From the NCBI RefSeq assembly GCF_022846255.1, contig NZ_AP025682.1: a stretch of DNA of 64,000 bases. The stretch is one strand, 5' to 3'. A program made the translations under genes and the position numbers. Source of the stretch: Escherichia coli (GTDB lineage Bacteria > Pseudomonadota > Gammaproteobacteria > Enterobacterales > Enterobacteriaceae). Within the stretch, counting starts at the first letter, position 1, and every line of letters starts with the position of its first letter. The notes under the pieces are model-generated. The model was not told the origin of the DNA, made no database searches, and was given only the letters and a program-made list of their open reading frames with translations. This document shows positions 1 through 7,592 of the stretch, piece by piece.

Positions 1-184
1 ACCTCGCACGTTTTGACTCATATTCTGACAACACAGCGACACCTGGGCTAATTCGAAAAACAACGTCCTGCCACCGGATGGTGATGTTAAGGCATCTGAT
101 TCGGCCTGCGCCCTCGCGTAGGCCGAATACAGGATCTGCGCAATCAACGGGTAACAAACAGTTGAGTCAATTCAGTGCGCACTT

Positions 185-1738
185 TTATTTGATATCCTTC
201 ACGCGCATACCGTTGAGCTGTTCATCCGTAATGGTGTTGCCCGCTTTGAAGTAATCAACCACCGCGTGATAAACGTAATAACCGCCCGTTGTGTTACGCG
301 CTTTCCCTTCGGTAAAGGCGGTAAAACCATCTCCACCATCAGCAAGGAAACTCTGAGTAGCAATGTGATAAACCGTCGCATCTTCAATGGGTTTGCCATT
401 CAGAGTCAGTGTGATTACCCGCTGACCAACCGGCTTGCTGCTGTCGTACTTCATTTCCAGGCCTTTCGATACCTGTAAAACGCCATTGCTTAAACTTGCG
501 CCGTGTTCCATCAGACTGCGTAATTGTTTACCCGTGAGTTCCATCGTCACCAGTTCGTTGGGGAACGGGAACGTACTGATAACGCCGCCCATCGTGATCG
601 CCCCTGCGGGGATCTCATTGCGGATACCACCAGAGTTTGTTAACGCCAGTTGGGTATTTTTACCCGCTGCTGCCAGTAAAGCGTCAGCCGCCAGGTTCCC
701 GAGGGAAGCCGATTCACCATAGGCACGTTTTAATTCAACCGGCGATTGCGCCACCGTTTGTTGCACCACTTCATCAAGCTTTTTATTCCAGCCGTCGATC
801 ACCTGTTTCGTTTGCGGATCGGGCTTCCACTCGTCAGCGTAAATGGTTTTAAGCTCGAAGTTTTTCACCGTAAAATTATGCGGCTTCTCTTTGTAGTCGA
901 GAACCAGTTTGCCCACATCAATCCCGCCGCTGTCAGTGGAGAGGATGAGCGTATTGCCGACTTTAATCGGTTCCGGCGTACCCACATGTGCATGTCCGGT
1001 GATCAAAATATCCAGCCCTTTCACCTGACTTGCCGTCTGAATATCTTTATCCAACGCGCGACGCACATCTGTGCCTCCCATACTGGACTGGCGGGCCGGA
1101 ACACCTTCATGGATCAGGGCGACGGTCAAATCAACCTTGCCTTTAAGTTCATCGATATAACGTTGTAGCCATTTAATTTCATCACGCGCCTCAATACCCA
1201 CTCGCGTGGCAGCAGATACTGTGTCATTAAAGGCAAATACACCGTGCAAACCTATAACGCCTATTTTCACACCGTCTTTTTCGATGATGGTATAGGGCTT
1301 ATCCCAGAATGATTTACTGCTGTTCTGATAAAAAACATTGCCCTGCACAATCGGGAATTTTGCCTGACTCAACTGTAATAATGTGTTGTCCCAGCCGTGG
1401 TCAAATTCATGGTTGCCTATCGTGACGGCATCAAACGGCATAGTATTCATAATATCGATAATAGCCTTACCTTTGGTCAGGCTGCTGATATATGGCCCGG
1501 TAAAATAGTCGCCCGCATCAAAAAACCATGTCGCTTTATTTTTTGCTTTTTCTTGCTTAACCAGCGTAGTGATATTTGCCCAGCCGCCAATATCCCGTTT
1601 ACCGTTCGCAATCCACGGCACTTTATAAGGCTCTACATGTGCATGGAGGTCGTTAGTATAAATAATGGTGACATCTTTGGCGCAAGCCCAGAACGGCAAT
1701 GTTAATGCGATACCCGCAGCAAGTATTTTAATTTTCAT
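185..1738 (-). CDS. secreted UshA-family metallophosphoesterase / 5'-nucleotidase, paralog 1 (ORF extends to TTG at 1744; first ATG at 1738)
   Basis: N-terminal signal peptide; calcineurin-like phosphoesterase motifs [35 protein letters not shown]; long C-terminal domain as in 5'-nucleotidases; SD-like AAGGGA upstream of ATG. Confidence 0.8.
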
Positions 1739-1797
1739 AAACAATCCCTTTCAGTGAGATAAAGGATTGCTACATTACGTTCTGAAAGACTTATTTA

Positions 1798-1813
1798 TGT
1801 GAGAGTAATCACA
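1798..1813. promoter_or_regulatory. candidate CRP binding site TGTGAgagtaaTCACA in divergent promoter region
   Basis: both half-sites match consensus TGTGA-N6-TCACA exactly; centred about 65 bp from each flanking start codon. Confidence 0.6.
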
Positions 1814-1870
1814 TCCGCAGGGGATAGTTGCCGGACAAAATCAACGACCTTGTGAAATCGTTGGTGATAT

Positions 1871-2995
1871 ATGTCGACTCTGTTTACGATTAATGCCTGT
1901 AAAACGTTCGGTTGCCGAAATTTGGGATTGGCCTCATCGGAAGATTACAGTTGGCCAGACTATAAACTGGGTTATCCGGCACTGCACTGTCGGGCATGTG
2001 GAAGTTACCCGCCGTTGTTTGACGAACAGCAATTTCGTGACTGGTTGTCAGTTCACTTATCTACTTTTGCAACTGAGAAAGGTCATTTCTGCCCGGTATG
2101 TTATGGCACAGACATGATTTGTTATGGTCACAATCCACAGGGTTCGCAACGCATTCAATGCCGTAACTGCAAAAAAGTCTGGACGCCTAAAAAATATCAG
2201 AAAGAAATTACGCATCCCCAGGCCATTGAAACCGTTCAACTGTTCATACCCTTTCAAGGGGCCAGTGCAGTACAAAAACTGTATGTTTTAGTCAGTCTTG
2301 ACGCCACTCGTGGCAACATTCTTCATCTCTCCACGAATTATACGCAACATCAGACAGGAGACAGTCTGCGGTACAGTTACAAGGGCAACACAGAACCAAC
2401 TATGCACCATCGCGATATCGTGCAGAAGGTAGATATGCGTGAAGCGCAATTCTTGCGCCGGAGCCAGTTCGATGAAATTCAGTATGGCAGTGCTGTACTC
2501 AAGCGCAACGGTAAGGGAGCCATACTACGCCCGGTTATCACGGCACACGGGCATTTCAGAATACTGAAAATCCGCTATCCAGATGTCAAAACGCATATTA
2601 TTTCACACGAATGTTTTCTAAGAGGCGCAATTATTACAGCCTGGGCAGATCAGTTCCGCCAACAACAAGGTGAACTTTGGTTCGTAGAAGAAGAAATCAG
2701 TGACAGTAACGCTGATACGCCCTGGCATTTTAAGGGAACGACATACCATGGTTGGTGGCAAAATCAGTGGCAGCGCTGGGAGCAGGGGAATAACTGCAAG
2801 ATGGTCTGCCTACTCACGGGAGCCTGCTTAGAAAGGGGCGCAAATGTTTCTCTGGCAACCAGTCGTTGTTTTATCACATGGCTGACAGACCAACACGACT
2901 TTACCCAAAGCGCGTTATTATCCGCAGGTCGCGTAACACAAATGCTGACCTCACTGGCGTTAAAATACAATGAATCGCTCACTCCATCTTGTTAG
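1871..2995 (+). CDS. zinc-ribbon protein of unknown function; second Cys cluster resembles IS1 InsA / transposase-type zinc ribbon; possibly transposase-derived
   Basis: 374-aa ORF; C-x4-C...C-x2-C and CPVC-x19-CRNC-x3-W motifs in first 100 aa; no terminal inverted repeats seen around it. Confidence 0.5.
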   Translation: MSTLFTINACKTFGCRNLGLASSEDYSWPDYKLGYPALHCRACGSYPPLFDEQQFRDWLSVHLSTFATEKGHFCPVCYGTDMICYGHNPQGSQRIQCRNCKKVWTPKKYQKEITHPQAIETVQLFIPFQGASAVQKLYVLVSLDATRGNILHLSTNYTQHQTGDSLRYSYKGNTEPTMHHRDIVQKVDMREAQFLRRSQFDEIQYGSAVLKRNGKGAILRPVITAHGHFRILKIRYPDVKTHIISHECFLRGAIITAWADQFRQQQGELWFVEEEISDSNADTPWHFKGTTYHGWWQNQWQRWEQGNNCKMVCLLTGACLERGANVSLATSRCFITWLTDQHDFTQSALLSAGRVTQMLTSLALKYNESLTPSC

Positions 2996-3114
2996 TCAAT
3001 ACACTCGACAAACGACCATAAATTAAGAGAGAGCACTACCTTTCATTTAATTAAATATATAAATGTATGACCGTGAAATATAATCATGGTCAATGTTTAA
3101 TTAATAACATTATT

Positions 3115-3130
3115 TGTTACTAAGATCACA
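3115..3130. promoter_or_regulatory. weak CRP-like site TGTTActaagaTCACA upstream of nucleotidase paralog 2
   Basis: one perfect half-site, one with a G-to-T change; about 100 bp upstream of start codon. Confidence 0.3.
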
Positions 3131-3162
3131 CAATACTTTTCTGAACTATGCTTACATAAAAT

Positions 3163-3179
3163 AAGACACGATGTGTCTT
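3163..3179 (+). terminator. hairpin aagacac-gat-gtgtctt followed by T-rich tract
   Basis: 7-bp stem, 3-nt loop, then tttatttaaa; lies between zinc-ribbon gene and paralog 2. Confidence 0.35.
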
Positions 3180-3224
3180 TTATTTAAATAATTCAACAAA
3201 TGTAACACACCCTATCCAGGAGGG

Positions 3225-4778
3225 ATGATGAAAACTGTATTTACAACATTATCAGTCATATTCGGCGTGATATTTTCTCACAGTGTTCTAGCTCAGGACG
3301 TTACTATTTATTATACGAATGACATTCACGCACATGTCAATCCGGCAAAAATCATCGCTGTTGATAAGAACAGACTTATAGGTGGTATGGCTAATATTGC
3401 AGGCATCGTTAATGAAGCGAAGAAAAAAAGCAAAGATGTGTTTTTCTTTGATGCAGGCGACTATTTTACCGGGCCGTATATCAGCACCCTGACCAAAGGT
3501 GAAGCTATTATTGATATCATGAACACTATGCCCTTTGATGCGGTGTCTGTTGGTAATCACGAGTTCGATCACGGTGTGCCCAATATGGTGTCTCAGTTAT
3601 CAAAAGCAAAATTTCCCATTCTGCTGGGAAATATCTACTACACCGATACGAATAAACCAGTTTGGGATCATCCGTGGACCATTATCGAAAAAGATGGTTT
3701 AAAGATTGGTGTGATTGGATTGCATGGCGCATTCGCTTTCTATGATACAGTCGCGGCAAAAGCACGTGAAGGCGTAGAAGCCAGAGACGAAATTAAATAT
3801 TTAAATAAAGCACTTGCAGAATTAAAAGGTAAAGTCGACATTACCGTTTTGCTAATTCACGAAGGTGTCCCGGCGCGTCAATCAAGCTTTGGTAGTAAAG
3901 ATGTGGAGCGGCTACTACAGGCAGATATTGAGACAGCTAAAAAAGTGAATGGTGTTGATGTCTTAATTACCGGTCACGCACATGTCGGAACACCGCAACC
4001 AATAAAAGTTAATAACACATTAATTGTATCTACCGATGCATACGGCACCAACATCGGAAAACTTGTGCTTGATTACAATCCGAAAACGAAGAAAATTGAT
4101 AGTTATAATGGTGAGTTAATCACCATCTTTGCAGATCAATTTAAACCTGACACCATCGTTCAAAATACTATTGATAAATGGAGTGCAAAGCTTAACAAAA
4201 TAACACAGGAAGTTGTCGGCCATTCTCCCGTAGTTTTAACACGTGAGTATGGTAGTTCCTCTTCTACCGGCAACCTTATTCTTGATGCAATGATGGAAAA
4301 AACACCTGATGCCGTTGCCGGATTTCAAAATAGCGGTGGGATGCGAGCTGATTTTCCTAAAGGCGATATCACACTGGGAGATGTTATTAGCACATTCCCC
4401 TTTAATAATGACCTCATCGAGATGGATTTGACGGGCCGCGATCTCAAATCATTGATGACGCATGCAACCAATCTAACTAACGGTGTGTTACAAGTTTCTA
4501 AAAGTGTTGCGGTTGTCTATGACAGCAAAAAACCACTCAACCAACGGTTAATCTCTTTCACCATTAACGGCAAACCCGTGGAAGATAATCAAACATATCG
4601 TATTGCCACGCACTCCTTTTGTGCCAGTGGTGGTGACGGTTTTGAAGCATTTTTGAATGGAAAAAATGTGAAAACGATACCGGGAACAACCTCGGCGGAA
4701 TCTATCATCGATTATTTCAAAAATCACAAGCCTATCACCCCAGACTTAACTAAACGAGTCATGGACGTCGCCAAATAA
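3225..4778 (+). CDS. secreted UshA-family metallophosphoesterase / 5'-nucleotidase, paralog 2 (start may be second ATG at 3228)
   Basis: signal peptide ending VLA-QDV; motifs [35 protein letters not shown]; AT-rich coding sequence. Confidence 0.8.
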   Translation: MMKTVFTTLSVIFGVIFSHSVLAQDVTIYYTNDIHAHVNPAKIIAVDKNRLIGGMANIAGIVNEAKKKSKDVFFFDAGDYFTGPYISTLTKGEAIIDIMNTMPFDAVSVGNHEFDHGVPNMVSQLSKAKFPILLGNIYYTDTNKPVWDHPWTIIEKDGLKIGVIGLHGAFAFYDTVAAKAREGVEARDEIKYLNKALAELKGKVDITVLLIHEGVPARQSSFGSKDVERLLQADIETAKKVNGVDVLITGHAHVGTPQPIKVNNTLIVSTDAYGTNIGKLVLDYNPKTKKIDSYNGELITIFADQFKPDTIVQNTIDKWSAKLNKITQEVVGHSPVVLTREYGSSSSTGNLILDAMMEKTPDAVAGFQNSGGMRADFPKGDITLGDVISTFPFNNDLIEMDLTGRDLKSLMTHATNLTNGVLQVSKSVAVVYDSKKPLNQRLISFTINGKPVEDNQTYRIATHSFCASGGDGFEAFLNGKNVKTIPGTTSAESIIDYFKNHKPITPDLTKRVMDVAK

Positions 4779-4818
4779 AATCTCATTTATCAGTCAATTT
4801 ATTTAACAAGGAATGTGA

Positions 4819-6438
4819 ATGAAAACAGCGCAGTGTACTTTACTTGCCGCAACATTGCTGACTATTTTTTCGACCTCAGTCATGGCGCAGGATGTCACGA
4901 TTATTTATACCAATGATCTTCACGCTCATGTGGATTCCTATAAAGTACCGTATGTCGCAGACGGAAAACGCGACATTGGTGGCTTTGCCAATATATCCAC
5001 GTTAGTAAAACAAGAGAAAGCCAAAAATAAAGCCACCTTTTATTTTGATGCTGGAGACTATTTCACCGGGCCATATATCAGTAGCCTGACAAAGGGCGAA
5101 GCAATAATTGATATTATGAATACCATGCCTTTTGACGCAGTATCAATCGGTAATCATGAGTTTGACCATGGCTGGGATAATGCCCTCCGACAATTAAGCA
5201 AAGCGAATTTCCCTGTTTTATTAGGCAATGTTTATCATAAAGAGAGTGAGAAACCCTTCTGGAACAAGCCCTACACCATCCTGGAAAAAGATGGCATCAA
5301 GATTGGTATTGTTGGGCTACACGGCGTATTTGCATTTAATGACACGGTCTCGGAGCTCTCTCTCCAGGGACTCGATAATGACAATAATAACCGATTTGAT
5401 AAATCTTCCGCGACCCTCAAGAATCAGGGGATTGAAGCACGTGATGAAGTGAAGTATTTGCAGCATTATATCGATGAGTTACGTGATAAGGTTGACCTCA
5501 CCGTGGCGCTGGTTCATGAAGGCGTACCGGCGCGTCAGTCCAGCATTGGCAATACAGATGTTAGACGTGCGCTGGATAAAGATATTCAAACCGCAAGCAA
5601 GGTGAAAGGATTGGATATTCTGATTACCGGGCATGCCCACGTCGGAACGCCAGAACCAATCAAAGTCGGCAACACCTTAATCCTTTCGACTGACAGTGGC
5701 GGTATCGATATTGGTAAATTAATCCTTGATGTCAACCCTACAGCTCGTACTCATAAAGTGAAGAGCTTTGAGCTGAAAACGGTTTATGCCGATGAATGGA
5801 TACCCGATCCAACCACACAAAAAGTTATCAATGGCTGGAATAAAAAACTGGCGGATCTTGTACGCCAACCAGTCGGTGAATCATCGATTGCATTAACTCG
5901 TGCCTACGGTGAGTCATCGCAACTTGGCAACCTGTTTACCGATGCAATGCTTGTCGCTGCACCGACTGCACAAATTGCGTTGATAAACTCCGGCAGTTTA
6001 CGTGCTGATATAAATGCAGGCACGATTACCTTTGGTGACATTACCAGTACATTCCCCTTCAAGAATGAACTTACTGAAATGGATCTCAGCGGTAAGGATC
6101 TGCGTAACCTACTGGAACACGGGGCATCGCTTACCAATGGCATCCTGCAAATGTCAAAAGGCGCAGAAATGCGCTATACCCTGCAGAAACCAGTAGGTCA
6201 GCGCATTGTATCTTTTAAAATTAATGGTGAAGAGATCGTTGATACGAATATTTACCATGTTGCGACTACGACTTTCCTTGCACTTGGGGGCGATGGTTTT
6301 CTGGCATTCAAAGAAGGGAAAAATGTCCAGGTCCGCGCCGGAAATAACATGTCCAATGTCGTAATCGATTATTTTAAGAAAGGCCACAAGATTACTCCTG
6401 CACAGGTAAATGAAATGCGGGTAGAAGTAAGCAAATAA
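4819..6438 (+). CDS. secreted UshA-family metallophosphoesterase / 5'-nucleotidase, paralog 3 (carries an 18-aa insertion relative to paralogs 1 and 2)
   Basis: signal peptide ending VMA-QDV; same five phosphoesterase motifs; SD AAGGAA upstream; starts 40 bp after paralog 2. Confidence 0.8.
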   Translation: MKTAQCTLLAATLLTIFSTSVMAQDVTIIYTNDLHAHVDSYKVPYVADGKRDIGGFANISTLVKQEKAKNKATFYFDAGDYFTGPYISSLTKGEAIIDIMNTMPFDAVSIGNHEFDHGWDNALRQLSKANFPVLLGNVYHKESEKPFWNKPYTILEKDGIKIGIVGLHGVFAFNDTVSELSLQGLDNDNNNRFDKSSATLKNQGIEARDEVKYLQHYIDELRDKVDLTVALVHEGVPARQSSIGNTDVRRALDKDIQTASKVKGLDILITGHAHVGTPEPIKVGNTLILSTDSGGIDIGKLILDVNPTARTHKVKSFELKTVYADEWIPDPTTQKVINGWNKKLADLVRQPVGESSIALTRAYGESSQLGNLFTDAMLVAAPTAQIALINSGSLRADINAGTITFGDITSTFPFKNELTEMDLSGKDLRNLLEHGASLTNGILQMSKGAEMRYTLQKPVGQRIVSFKINGEEIVDTNIYHVATTTFLALGGDGFLAFKEGKNVQVRAGNNMSNVVIDYFKKGHKITPAQVNEMRVEVSK

Positions 6439-6514
6439 CAAAAACTTATAATACCATTCATTCACTGGATGACATTATTTCTCTCTAAATCAACAATATA
6501 TAAGAGATATATTT

Positions 6515-7375
6515 ATGTATATAAAAAAGCACTGGATAGCTTTATCCATTCTATTAATACCTTGCATTGGAAACGCTCAGGAAATTAAAATTGATGAAAG
6601 CTCGTTACATCAAAGCTTGAATGTCATTGGTCGCACAGACTCTCGCTTTGGCCCAAGACTGACTAACGACCTCTACCCTGAATATACTGTAGCAGGAAGA
6701 AAAGACTGGTTTGATTTTTATGGTTATGTTGATCTACCGAAATTCTTTGGCGTCGGCAGTCACTATGATGTTGGGATCTGGGATGAAGGCTCACCACTAT
6801 TTACGGAAATAGAACCTCGGTTTTCCATTGACAAATTGACCGGATTAAATCTTGCGTTCGGCCCATTTAAAGAATGGTTCATTGCAAACAACTATGTCTA
6901 TGATATGGGTGACAACCAGTCATCCCGGCAAAGTACATGGTATATGGGGCTTGGTACAGATATCGACACGGGTCTACCAATTAAGCTTTCTGCCAATATA
7001 TACGCCAAGTATCAGTGGCAAAACTATGGTGCCGCTAATGAAAATGAATGGGACGGATATCGATTCAAAATAAAATATAGCATCCCTCTTACAAATTTAT
7101 TCGGAGGGCGATTGGTATACAATAGTTTTACTAACTTTGATTTTGGCTCCGATCTTGCGGACAAGTCACACAATAATAAACGAACCAGTAATGCTATTGC
7201 TTCAAGCCATATCCTTTCCCTTCTATATGAACACTGGAAATTTGCATTTACACTACGTTATTTTCACAACGGTGGACAATGGAATGCGGGAGAGAAGGTT
7301 AACTTCGGAGATGGTCCATTTGAATTAAAAAATACAGGATGGGGAACCTATACTACTATTGGTTATCAATTTTAA
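6515..7375 (+). CDS. Tsx-like nucleoside-specific outer-membrane channel (Tsx/OmpK family paralog)
   Basis: 286 aa, signal peptide, C-terminal Phe; blocks such as [37 protein letters not shown] and [26 protein letters not shown] recalled from Tsx. Confidence 0.7.
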
Positions 7376-7472
7376 ATTAGGTGACATTTTAGATATTGTT
7401 ACTTAATGTCATTTTGTAATTGTCATTAATAACTTCACCATTCACTCTGTTACTTCATCGCTCAACACAAAA

Positions 7473-7492
7473 GCCCCCTTATTACCGGGGGC
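7473..7492 (-). terminator. hairpin gccccc-N8-gggggc with T-rich tract on the minus strand
   Basis: inverted repeat followed on minus strand by ttttgtgtt. Confidence 0.35.
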
Positions 7493-7556
7493 ACTGACCA
7501 AAGGCAAAATGACAATCAATCACCACTTCCCCAGGAAGAGGTTTCGGGGTGACAAC

Positions 7557-7583
7557 AAAAGCTGGCAACTGCCAGCTTTTGTT
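7557..7583. terminator. bidirectional intrinsic terminator between Tsx-like gene and metL
   Basis: 8-bp stem agctggca/tgccagct flanked by an A-run and a T-run. Confidence 0.6.
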
Positions 7584-7592
7584 CAATAATCA

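Follow-up and report, generated by a model that had tools for sequence, protein, structure and literature searches.

The spacer between a tsx paralog and metL of Escherichia coli is probably a patchwork that includes an IS200-group left-end remnant

The window, i.e. the whole 64,000-nucleotide stretch of Escherichia coli DNA (contig NZ_AP025682.1) that was analysed, starts about 200 bp to the right of metF and opens with a five-gene cluster that reaches almost to metL (Table 1). Three 5'-nucleotidase genes (NT1, NT2 and NT3), a gene for a "cytoplasmic protein" (cyt) and a tsx paralog make up the cluster, and the gap between the tsx paralog and metL is 217 bp (7376-7592), the same length between the annotated genes as a first-pass annotation, made from the letters alone, had given. 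Window coordinates are converted to those of locus L001 by adding 12701. The G+C content is 37-46% in NT2-NT3-tsx (L001 15500-20000, about 2800-7300 in the window), about 41-52% in NT1 and cyt, and 54-59% in the flanking met genes and katG. The cyt product, which is conserved across the Enterobacteriaceae, has a weak IS1 InsA-like zinc ribbon at residues 74-105, and its gene is divergent from NT1 in nearly all the loci retrieved; it may be a regulator of the nucleotidase genes. A second locus type was seen in Enterobacter and Citrobacter (L017, L018, L036), with NT3, tsx, NT2 and NT1 on the other side of cyt.

Table 1. Features around the tsx-metL gap and E. coli alleles of the metF-metL slot; positions are those of the window unless a retrieved locus (L) is named.
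Feature	Position	Strand	Remarks
NT1, 5'-nucleotidase	185-1744	minus	
cyt, 374-aa "cytoplasmic protein"	1871-2995	plus	
NT2, 5'-nucleotidase	3225-4778		downstream of cyt
NT3, 5'-nucleotidase	4819-6438		after NT2
tsx paralog	6515-7375	plus	last cluster gene; NCBIfam PRK15106 Tsx, E 9e-147
TGTCATTTTG arm	7407-7416		partner CAAAATGACA at 7505-7514
Old tsx-paralog 3' flank	7434-7519		homologous to C. enshiensis L039 10917-11007
Hairpin 2, terminator-like	7473-7492	minus	6 G:C pairs, 8-nt loop; T-run 7472-7463
Best-conserved block CTGACCAAAGGCAAAATGACAATCAA	7494-7519		21/26 identical to C. enshiensis
Putative deletion junction ATCAA	7515-7519		5-nt overlap of tsx-flank homology (to 7519) and IS homology (to 7515)
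Solo IS200-group left-end remnant, IS bases 1-39	7515-7553	minus	
Hairpin 3, CCACTTCC-CCA-GGAAGAGG	7523-7541		decayed IS left-end inverted repeat, IS nt 13-31
IS insertion target TTTTGTT	7554-7560	minus	immediately 5' of IS left end
Predicted bidirectional intrinsic terminator	7554-7583	both	perfect 14-bp inverted repeat and T-runs
Spacer CAATAATCA	7584-7592		9 bp, terminator to metL stop codon; only in this allele
metL stop codon	7595-7593	minus	TAG; TAA in K-12
metL	7593-10025	minus	convergent with tsx paralog; then metB, metJ
Allele A	L002 5268-5616		K-12-like 348-bp spacer; 3576/5426 complete E. coli genomes
Allele B	L003 6220-9036		NT1 and cyt only; 1182 of 5426 complete genomes
Allele C	1-7592		window arrangement, five-gene cluster; 660/5426, including CFT073 and Nissle 1917
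Allele D	L048 2636-9038		GntR/aminotransferase, alanine racemase, SHMT, 335-aa membrane protein gene adjoining metL; rare

The homology with K-12 covers metF, runs to 150 bp upstream of the metF start codon (47 bp left of the window) and is not seen again until 7594, the middle base of the metL stop codon. The intervening 199 bp of K-12 are unrelated and include a weak hairpin and a REP element. The first-pass annotation had proposed that one of two terminators in the gap is ancestral to metL and that the other came in with an island, so that the integration junction lies between them, and had named an alignment with K-12 as the way to find the breakpoint. The alignment places the end of the homology at the stop codon and not between the hairpins. 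The idea of an ancestral metL terminator finds no support in the loci compared either, because neither hairpin is present in K-12, the short-island allele also joins at 7594, and Citrobacter, Klebsiella, Salmonella and allele D have a REP-like sequence or an overlapping gene at this place. None of 7376-7592 is present in strains lacking the island, where the annotation had allowed that all 217 bp might turn out to be ancestral sequence downstream of metL.

At least four alleles occupy the metF-metL slot in E. coli (Table 1), with allele D coming from draft-genome and metagenome contigs, and the DNA right after the metL stop is different in every allele and every other genus that we examined. 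The stop codon, as we read these comparisons, is simply the limit of selection on metL. The cyt ORF of allele B overlaps the 3' end of metL in antisense by 37 nt (L003 9000-9036; also L010-L013), and this overlap is 26 nt in Klebsiella (L025, L028, L031), so that a metL terminator could not fit in ahead of the adjoining gene.

In the window, our analysis predicts a bidirectional intrinsic terminator next to metL. AACAAAAGCTGGCA and TGCCAGCTTTTGTT form a perfect 14-nt inverted repeat (7554-7567 and 7570-7583), giving a G+C-rich stem of 13-14 bp with no mismatch, and UUUUGUU stands right after the stem on each strand, the plus-strand U-tract being TTTTGTTCAAT and the minus-strand one TTTTGTTGTCA. 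The RNA folds at -21.1 kcal/mol (z -5.7) on the minus strand and at -20.6 kcal/mol (z -5.4) on the plus strand, and none of 200 shuffles was equally stable. A simple terminator scan missed this site because the stem takes up the A and T runs. The first-pass annotation had already put a bidirectional terminator right after metL, and the strong palindrome bears this out, with the difference that it starts at 7554 and not at 7557 as given there (7557-7583). Its geometry and stability suggest termination activity, and it would end transcripts from both sides, that of metBL on the minus strand and that of the tsx cluster on the plus strand.

As in the bidirectional Rho-independent terminators of convergent genes, the perfect stem of the palindrome is rich in G+C, with an A-run before it and a T-run after it, and the palindrome sits 9 nt past the metL stop. 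Unlike the typical ones it lies 178 nt past the stop of the tsx paralog, so the tsx-paralog transcript would carry a long 3' UTR. The REP/BIME elements of K-12, Citrobacter and allele D likewise form hairpins directly after the metL stop, but they have no sequence similarity to the palindrome, which has T-runs and a stem extended by A and T and not the GCCGGATG-type REP consensus. Allele D, the one that bears the 335-aa membrane protein gene (ORF335), has a REP-like spacer without the palindrome, and we found the palindrome in no other allele or species among those compared.

The sequence immediately beyond the palindrome matches the left end of an IS200-group element. The minus strand from 7553 to 7515, GTCACCCCGAAACCTCTTCCTGGGGAAGTGGTGATTGAT, aligns with bases 1-39 of a 629-bp element (L042 1233-1861), GTTATCCCTAAACCACCTCCTAGGGAGGTGGTGATTGAT, with 32 of the 39 positions identical in the window and 34 of 39 in the EC42405 allele (82-87%). 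The alignment begins at IS base 1 and scores 25, compared with 10.5 +/- 1.3 for shuffles (z about 11). The ORF of the element encodes a Y1 transposase (Pfam Y1_Tnp PF01797, E 7e-41). The IS terminus was set by a comparison of ompX with the element in place (CUPF09) and without it (J53), together with three other contexts, i.e. a complete copy carried by an IncX1 plasmid and, on other plasmids, solo left ends 67 and 106 nt long. The IS starts with the same G at every site, always after TTTT[G/A]TT, the target being TTTTGTT at the ompX terminator and on the IncX1 plasmid and TTTTATT on the other plasmids. The TTTTGTT in the window is hence identical to the target at two of the three other independent sites. 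At ompX, the empty site indicates insertion without target duplication. As to the surroundings of these copies, the 629-bp element in CUPF09, a strain with nine copies of it, lies directly after the ompX terminator, the IncX1 plasmid copy (L041 about 1955-2539) also follows a terminator, and the solo left ends (L045-L047 about 907-1013) lie between a permease gene and a ProQ/FinO-family gene.

The IS sequence in the window begins exactly after the TTTTGTT of the palindrome, and therefore the palindrome should be target DNA that predates the IS and not its cargo; this supports a palindrome contiguous with metL and older than the insertion. No tnpA and no second CCACCTCC hairpin were found in 7376-7592, and the homology ends at IS base 39. 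Since tnpA and the right end are missing, we take the sequence to be a remnant and not an intact member of the group. It matches a tnpA-only element of 629 bp that occurs on E. coli chromosomes and on IncX1 and other plasmids. Elements of the IS200/IS605 family in general insert 3' of a short target and do not duplicate it, and the short specific target and the empty ompX site fit this habit. The 629-bp element can be set beside the 707-bp IS200 of Salmonella by size only, and what the window keeps differs from IS200 in being 39 nt long at 82-87% identity, without tnpA or right end. The left end of IS200 has a subterminal inverted repeat at about nt 12-34, which in Salmonella was reported to act as a bidirectional terminator (PMC4513863); the counterpart here is at IS nt 13-31.

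This counterpart, hairpin 3, was absent from the first-pass annotation. Its 8-bp stem is perfect in the IS as well as in the EC42405 allele (-16.1 kcal/mol, z -3.3), while seven of the eight pairs are left in the window allele, where the hairpin is not the minimum-energy fold (z -0.8). One mismatch has appeared there and one pair is altered on both sides. We considered this compensatory change as a mark of a selected RNA structure and downgraded the idea, since it is a single event, a mismatch was gained as well and the fold is no better than shuffles. Palindromes can also mutate on both arms by template switching. All the allele-C variants, which are up to 7% divergent, carry the remnant and thus the scar, so the event that left it should be old. 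The IS left end was not found in viral contigs scanned for its exact pattern.

Toward the tsx paralog, the gap has homology of another kind. The closest Tsx paralog outside E. coli is that of C. enshiensis (85% identity), where the gene has the same position. The local alignment of 7434-7519 with the flank of this gene scores 24, whereas shuffles give 11.3 +/- 1.3 with a maximum of 16 (z about 10); the two flanks were also aligned by MAFFT, and the alignment takes in the block CTGACCAAAGG[C/A]AAAA. Within the aligned part lies hairpin 2, GCCCCC-8 nt-GGGGGC with the tail TTTTGTGTTG on the minus strand only. The second terminator-like hairpin of the first-pass annotation was found exactly where it had been placed, T-run included, and both hairpins named there do combine a stem-loop with a T-run. 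The stability of hairpin 2 is modest, with -14.6 kcal/mol on the minus strand (z -1.85, 7 of 200 shuffles as good) and z -3.4 for the plus-strand fold.

C. enshiensis has a hairpin at the homologous site, with another stem sequence and a T-rich tail on the minus strand. It is the minimum-energy fold on the plus strand (z -2.5) but not on the minus strand (z -1.1), and the orientation in which this homologue functions is uncertain. The counterpart agrees with the earlier proposal that one of the terminators belongs to the gene cluster. Allele D, which has no tsx, lacks the 7434-7519 sequence. Since the flank is kept in C. enshiensis and is absent from the allele without tsx, hairpin 2 appears to travel with tsx. 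Its T-run would stop leftward transcription before this enters tsx in antisense, and in the past the hairpin probably protected tsx against leftward transcription that began in the spacer between tsx and the next gene, ORF327. At present it may be only a back-up terminator, and hairpins 3 and 2, which are downstream of the palindrome for metL read-through, could both play this part.

Hairpin 2 with the next base, GCCCCCTTATTACCGGGGGCA (7473-7493), also resembles the inner hairpin of the IS right end, GCCCCCTTATAGGGGGCA (L042 1806-1823). We rejected an IS right end on the plus strand, as suggested by the likeness to GCCCCCTTATAGGGGGC, because the flanks of hairpin 3 match the left end (8/8 and 9/12 by eye) and not the right one and because the orthologue of hairpin 2 occurs in C. 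enshiensis, where there is no IS sequence. The orientation and this orthologue argue for a coincidence, one that they do not fully explain.

The cluster or parts of it are found in the same place in other genera. Between metF and metL, Citrobacter spp., Klebsiella spp., Superficieibacter, Pseudocitrobacter, Salmonella arizonae and E. whittamii all carry NT1 and cyt, and the pair of a 5'-nucleotidase and the "cytoplasmic protein" occupies the metF-metL slot in six or more genera. The order in C. enshiensis is katG, metF, NT1, cyt, NT2, NT3, Tsx, ORF327 and metL, i.e. that of allele C with one extra gene, ORF327, for a weakly MFS-like membrane protein. This is the only genome outside E. coli with the long cluster, and given this single case there may have been horizontal exchange between the E. 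coli and C. enshiensis lineages. In S. arizonae (L038 10525-11680), cyt is a pseudogene with a stop after 174 codons and two fragments of ORF327 lie beside metL, with an ERIC-type-looking repeat (by eye) between them and the pseudogene. This locus appears to be a further independent state of decay of the cluster. Judged by sequence comparison, then, the "island" is an old cross-genus cluster that has decayed differently in different lineages, and not a recent insertion with an att junction.

We consider it quite likely that the 217-bp spacer is a three-part patchwork from gene loss and not the attachment site of an island. Part 1 (7376-7519) would be the native 3' flank of the tsx paralog with the old hairpin 2, part 2 (7553-7515) the IS left end, and part 3 (7554-7592) the metL-proximal DNA with the two-way terminator. 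From the observed homologies, boundaries, hairpins and population distribution we infer the following order of events. The ancestor would have had tsx, a spacer, a gene for an ORF327-like membrane protein, the terminator and metL, an order that is still that of C. enshiensis save for the terminator. An IS would then have landed just 3' of the TTTTGTT of the terminator, its usual target, in the orientation of metL. One deletion would have taken the IS from base 40 to its end together with ORF327 and most of the tsx-ORF327 spacer, with the ends joined at ATCAA, and the remnant would have been decaying since, as the perfect stem in EC42405 and the degenerate one in the window suggest. No intermediate allele with ORF327, an intact IS and the palindrome was found in the complete E. 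coli genomes, and the ORF327 region of C. enshiensis has no match in them.

The history by gene loss has to be weighed against the earlier reading, a horizontally acquired island beside metL with one terminator ancestral, the other one cargo and the breakpoint between them. The part of that reading according to which the two hairpins have different histories with a junction between them stands, as the separate homologies to the tsx flank and to the IS indicate. An island would also suit the low G+C content of NT2-NT3-tsx relative to metL, metB and katG and the presence of the cluster in only 660 of the 5426 complete E. coli genomes, and the region is listed among genomic regions as GR31, metL..metF (PMC12928451). 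The comparison with K-12 largely refutes it, because K-12 and the short-allele strains have no part of 7376-7592, their homology ending with the stop codon. Between the hairpins, where the integration junction was expected, IS bases 1-39 adjoin the tsx flank. In several genera the same slot is filled by the cluster or by parts of it, and the annotation and ORF lists and the repeat search showed no integrase or recombinase, no tRNA and no flanking direct repeats. We therefore regard acquisition of an island at this junction as improbable. It is hardly credible that the whole of 7515-7583, hairpin 3 and the palindrome included, is the left end of another IS200 family member with the terminator borne by the IS. 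In its favour, a bidirectional terminator is reported inside the Salmonella IS200 left end (PMC4513863), and a terminator hairpin also adjoins the left end in the ompX and plasmid copies. The empty ompX site in J53 nevertheless keeps the terminator and TTTTTGTT, which makes these target DNA and not part of the IS; the adjoining hairpins differ at every site while the start base of the IS is constant, and the left-end inverted repeat of the IS itself is hairpin 3.

The minus strand of the gap could also be read as a small regulatory RNA (7553-7465) composed of hairpin 3, an A/U-rich linker and hairpin 2 with its U-tail, either as a read-through or processed product of the metL 3' end or as an independent gene, with the block CCUUUGGUCAG as its core. 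The layout is like the 3' module of an Hfq-type sRNA, the block adjoining the terminator is the best conserved one between E. coli and C. enshiensis, and E. coli alleles differ at both positions of one stem pair in hairpin 3. A promoter-like TTGACT-18-TATTTT stands some 60-80 nt farther upstream on this strand in C. enshiensis, but promoter-like matches occur there at chance frequency, and in the window neither inspection by eye nor a scan found a convincing promoter for a minus-strand start at 7556-7660. Other observations also speak against such an RNA, i.e. the strong metL terminator upstream, a 5' half that is IS remnant and not conserved sequence, the degenerate hairpin 3 of the window allele, and a fold of 7465-7553 that is no better than shuffles (z -0.9). 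In a permissive Rfam search, neither 7200-7800 nor the C. enshiensis spacer had any match above chance level (Thr_leader reached 20 bits, compared with a gathering threshold of 55). Altogether we judge a small RNA here to be very doubtful.

The patchwork reading changes how the metL-metF "island" of ExPEC, APEC and Nissle is to be described, i.e. as a decayed cluster in a slot with at least four E. coli alleles. GR31 is given as a genomic region of ExPEC and APEC strains with the same locus and genes, including three UshA-like 5'-nucleotidases and a Tsx paralog, and as common to CFT073, Nissle 1917, BEN2908 and others; the part of that report that deals with GR31 covers gene content and a guess at function, and the junction is not treated in that part (PMC12928451). 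What our analysis adds is the division of the junction into three parts, the IS scar and the synteny across genera. Since the border on the metL side would be a deletion scar marked by an IS200-type remnant, a search for an attachment site there seems needless. The exact coordinates of the terminators should be kept in mind when the cluster is engineered or deleted in CFT073 or Nissle 1917, as keeping them would leave the termination of metBL undisturbed.

The insertion data suggest, over the four sites examined only, that the IS prefers terminator T-tracts, and the window adds a small data point of an IS200-group element landing in such a tract. We speculate, with little expectation that it is so, that B2-type strains make a metL read-through sRNA ending at 7473-7492 or that IS200-group elements home to terminator U-tracts of the form TTTT[G/A]TT. 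In the former case the CCUUUGGUCAG block would have been given a new head by the IS left-end hairpin, i.e. a regulatory RNA would have arisen from a deletion scar. In the latter the U-tract would be a safe landing site for IS200-group elements.

The short motifs of the spacer are probably chance repeats. The first-pass annotation had noted motifs in inverted orientation around 7414 and 7524, and the motifs exist, with the second arm at 7505-7514 and not near 7524: TGTCATTTT makes a perfect 10-nt inverted repeat (7407-7416 and 7505-7514). A separated perfect inverted repeat of at least 10 nt occurred in 14 of 1000 dinucleotide shuffles, which is nominally unusual. A divergent E. coli allele has substitutions in three of the four copies of the motif and a longest such repeat of 8 nt, and the motifs are not in the C. 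enshiensis spacer. A long-range RNA helix between the arms (7398-7416 and 7505-7523, 79% complementary) was rejected, because in the divergent allele the pairs at 7398 and 7409 are lost with no compensating change and three of the four copies carry mutations.

The 11-mer CTGACCAAAGG recurs in the spacer (7494-7504, plus strand), in NT1 (1470-1480, minus strand) and in NT2 (3489-3499, plus strand), in frame in both genes and coding for LTKG, and the window has four matches at no more than one mismatch compared with 0.8 expected. We rejected a nucleotidase pseudogene fragment, for which blastn gave E 0.53 and blastx no match. The similarity ends at 11-14 nt, and since it goes no further the recurrence is judged to be chance. 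Sigma-70-like matches on the plus strand lie at 7325-7354, inside the end of the tsx paralog, and at 7562-7590, where the match overlaps the terminator and points into metL in antisense; matches of this kind are about as numerous in the region as chance would give. Farther along two of the retrieved loci (L004 14002-18107 and L006 14167-18216), yiiX has a copy of IS1 or ISAs1 and an RHS element after it, in the place where other strains carry rpmE and priA.
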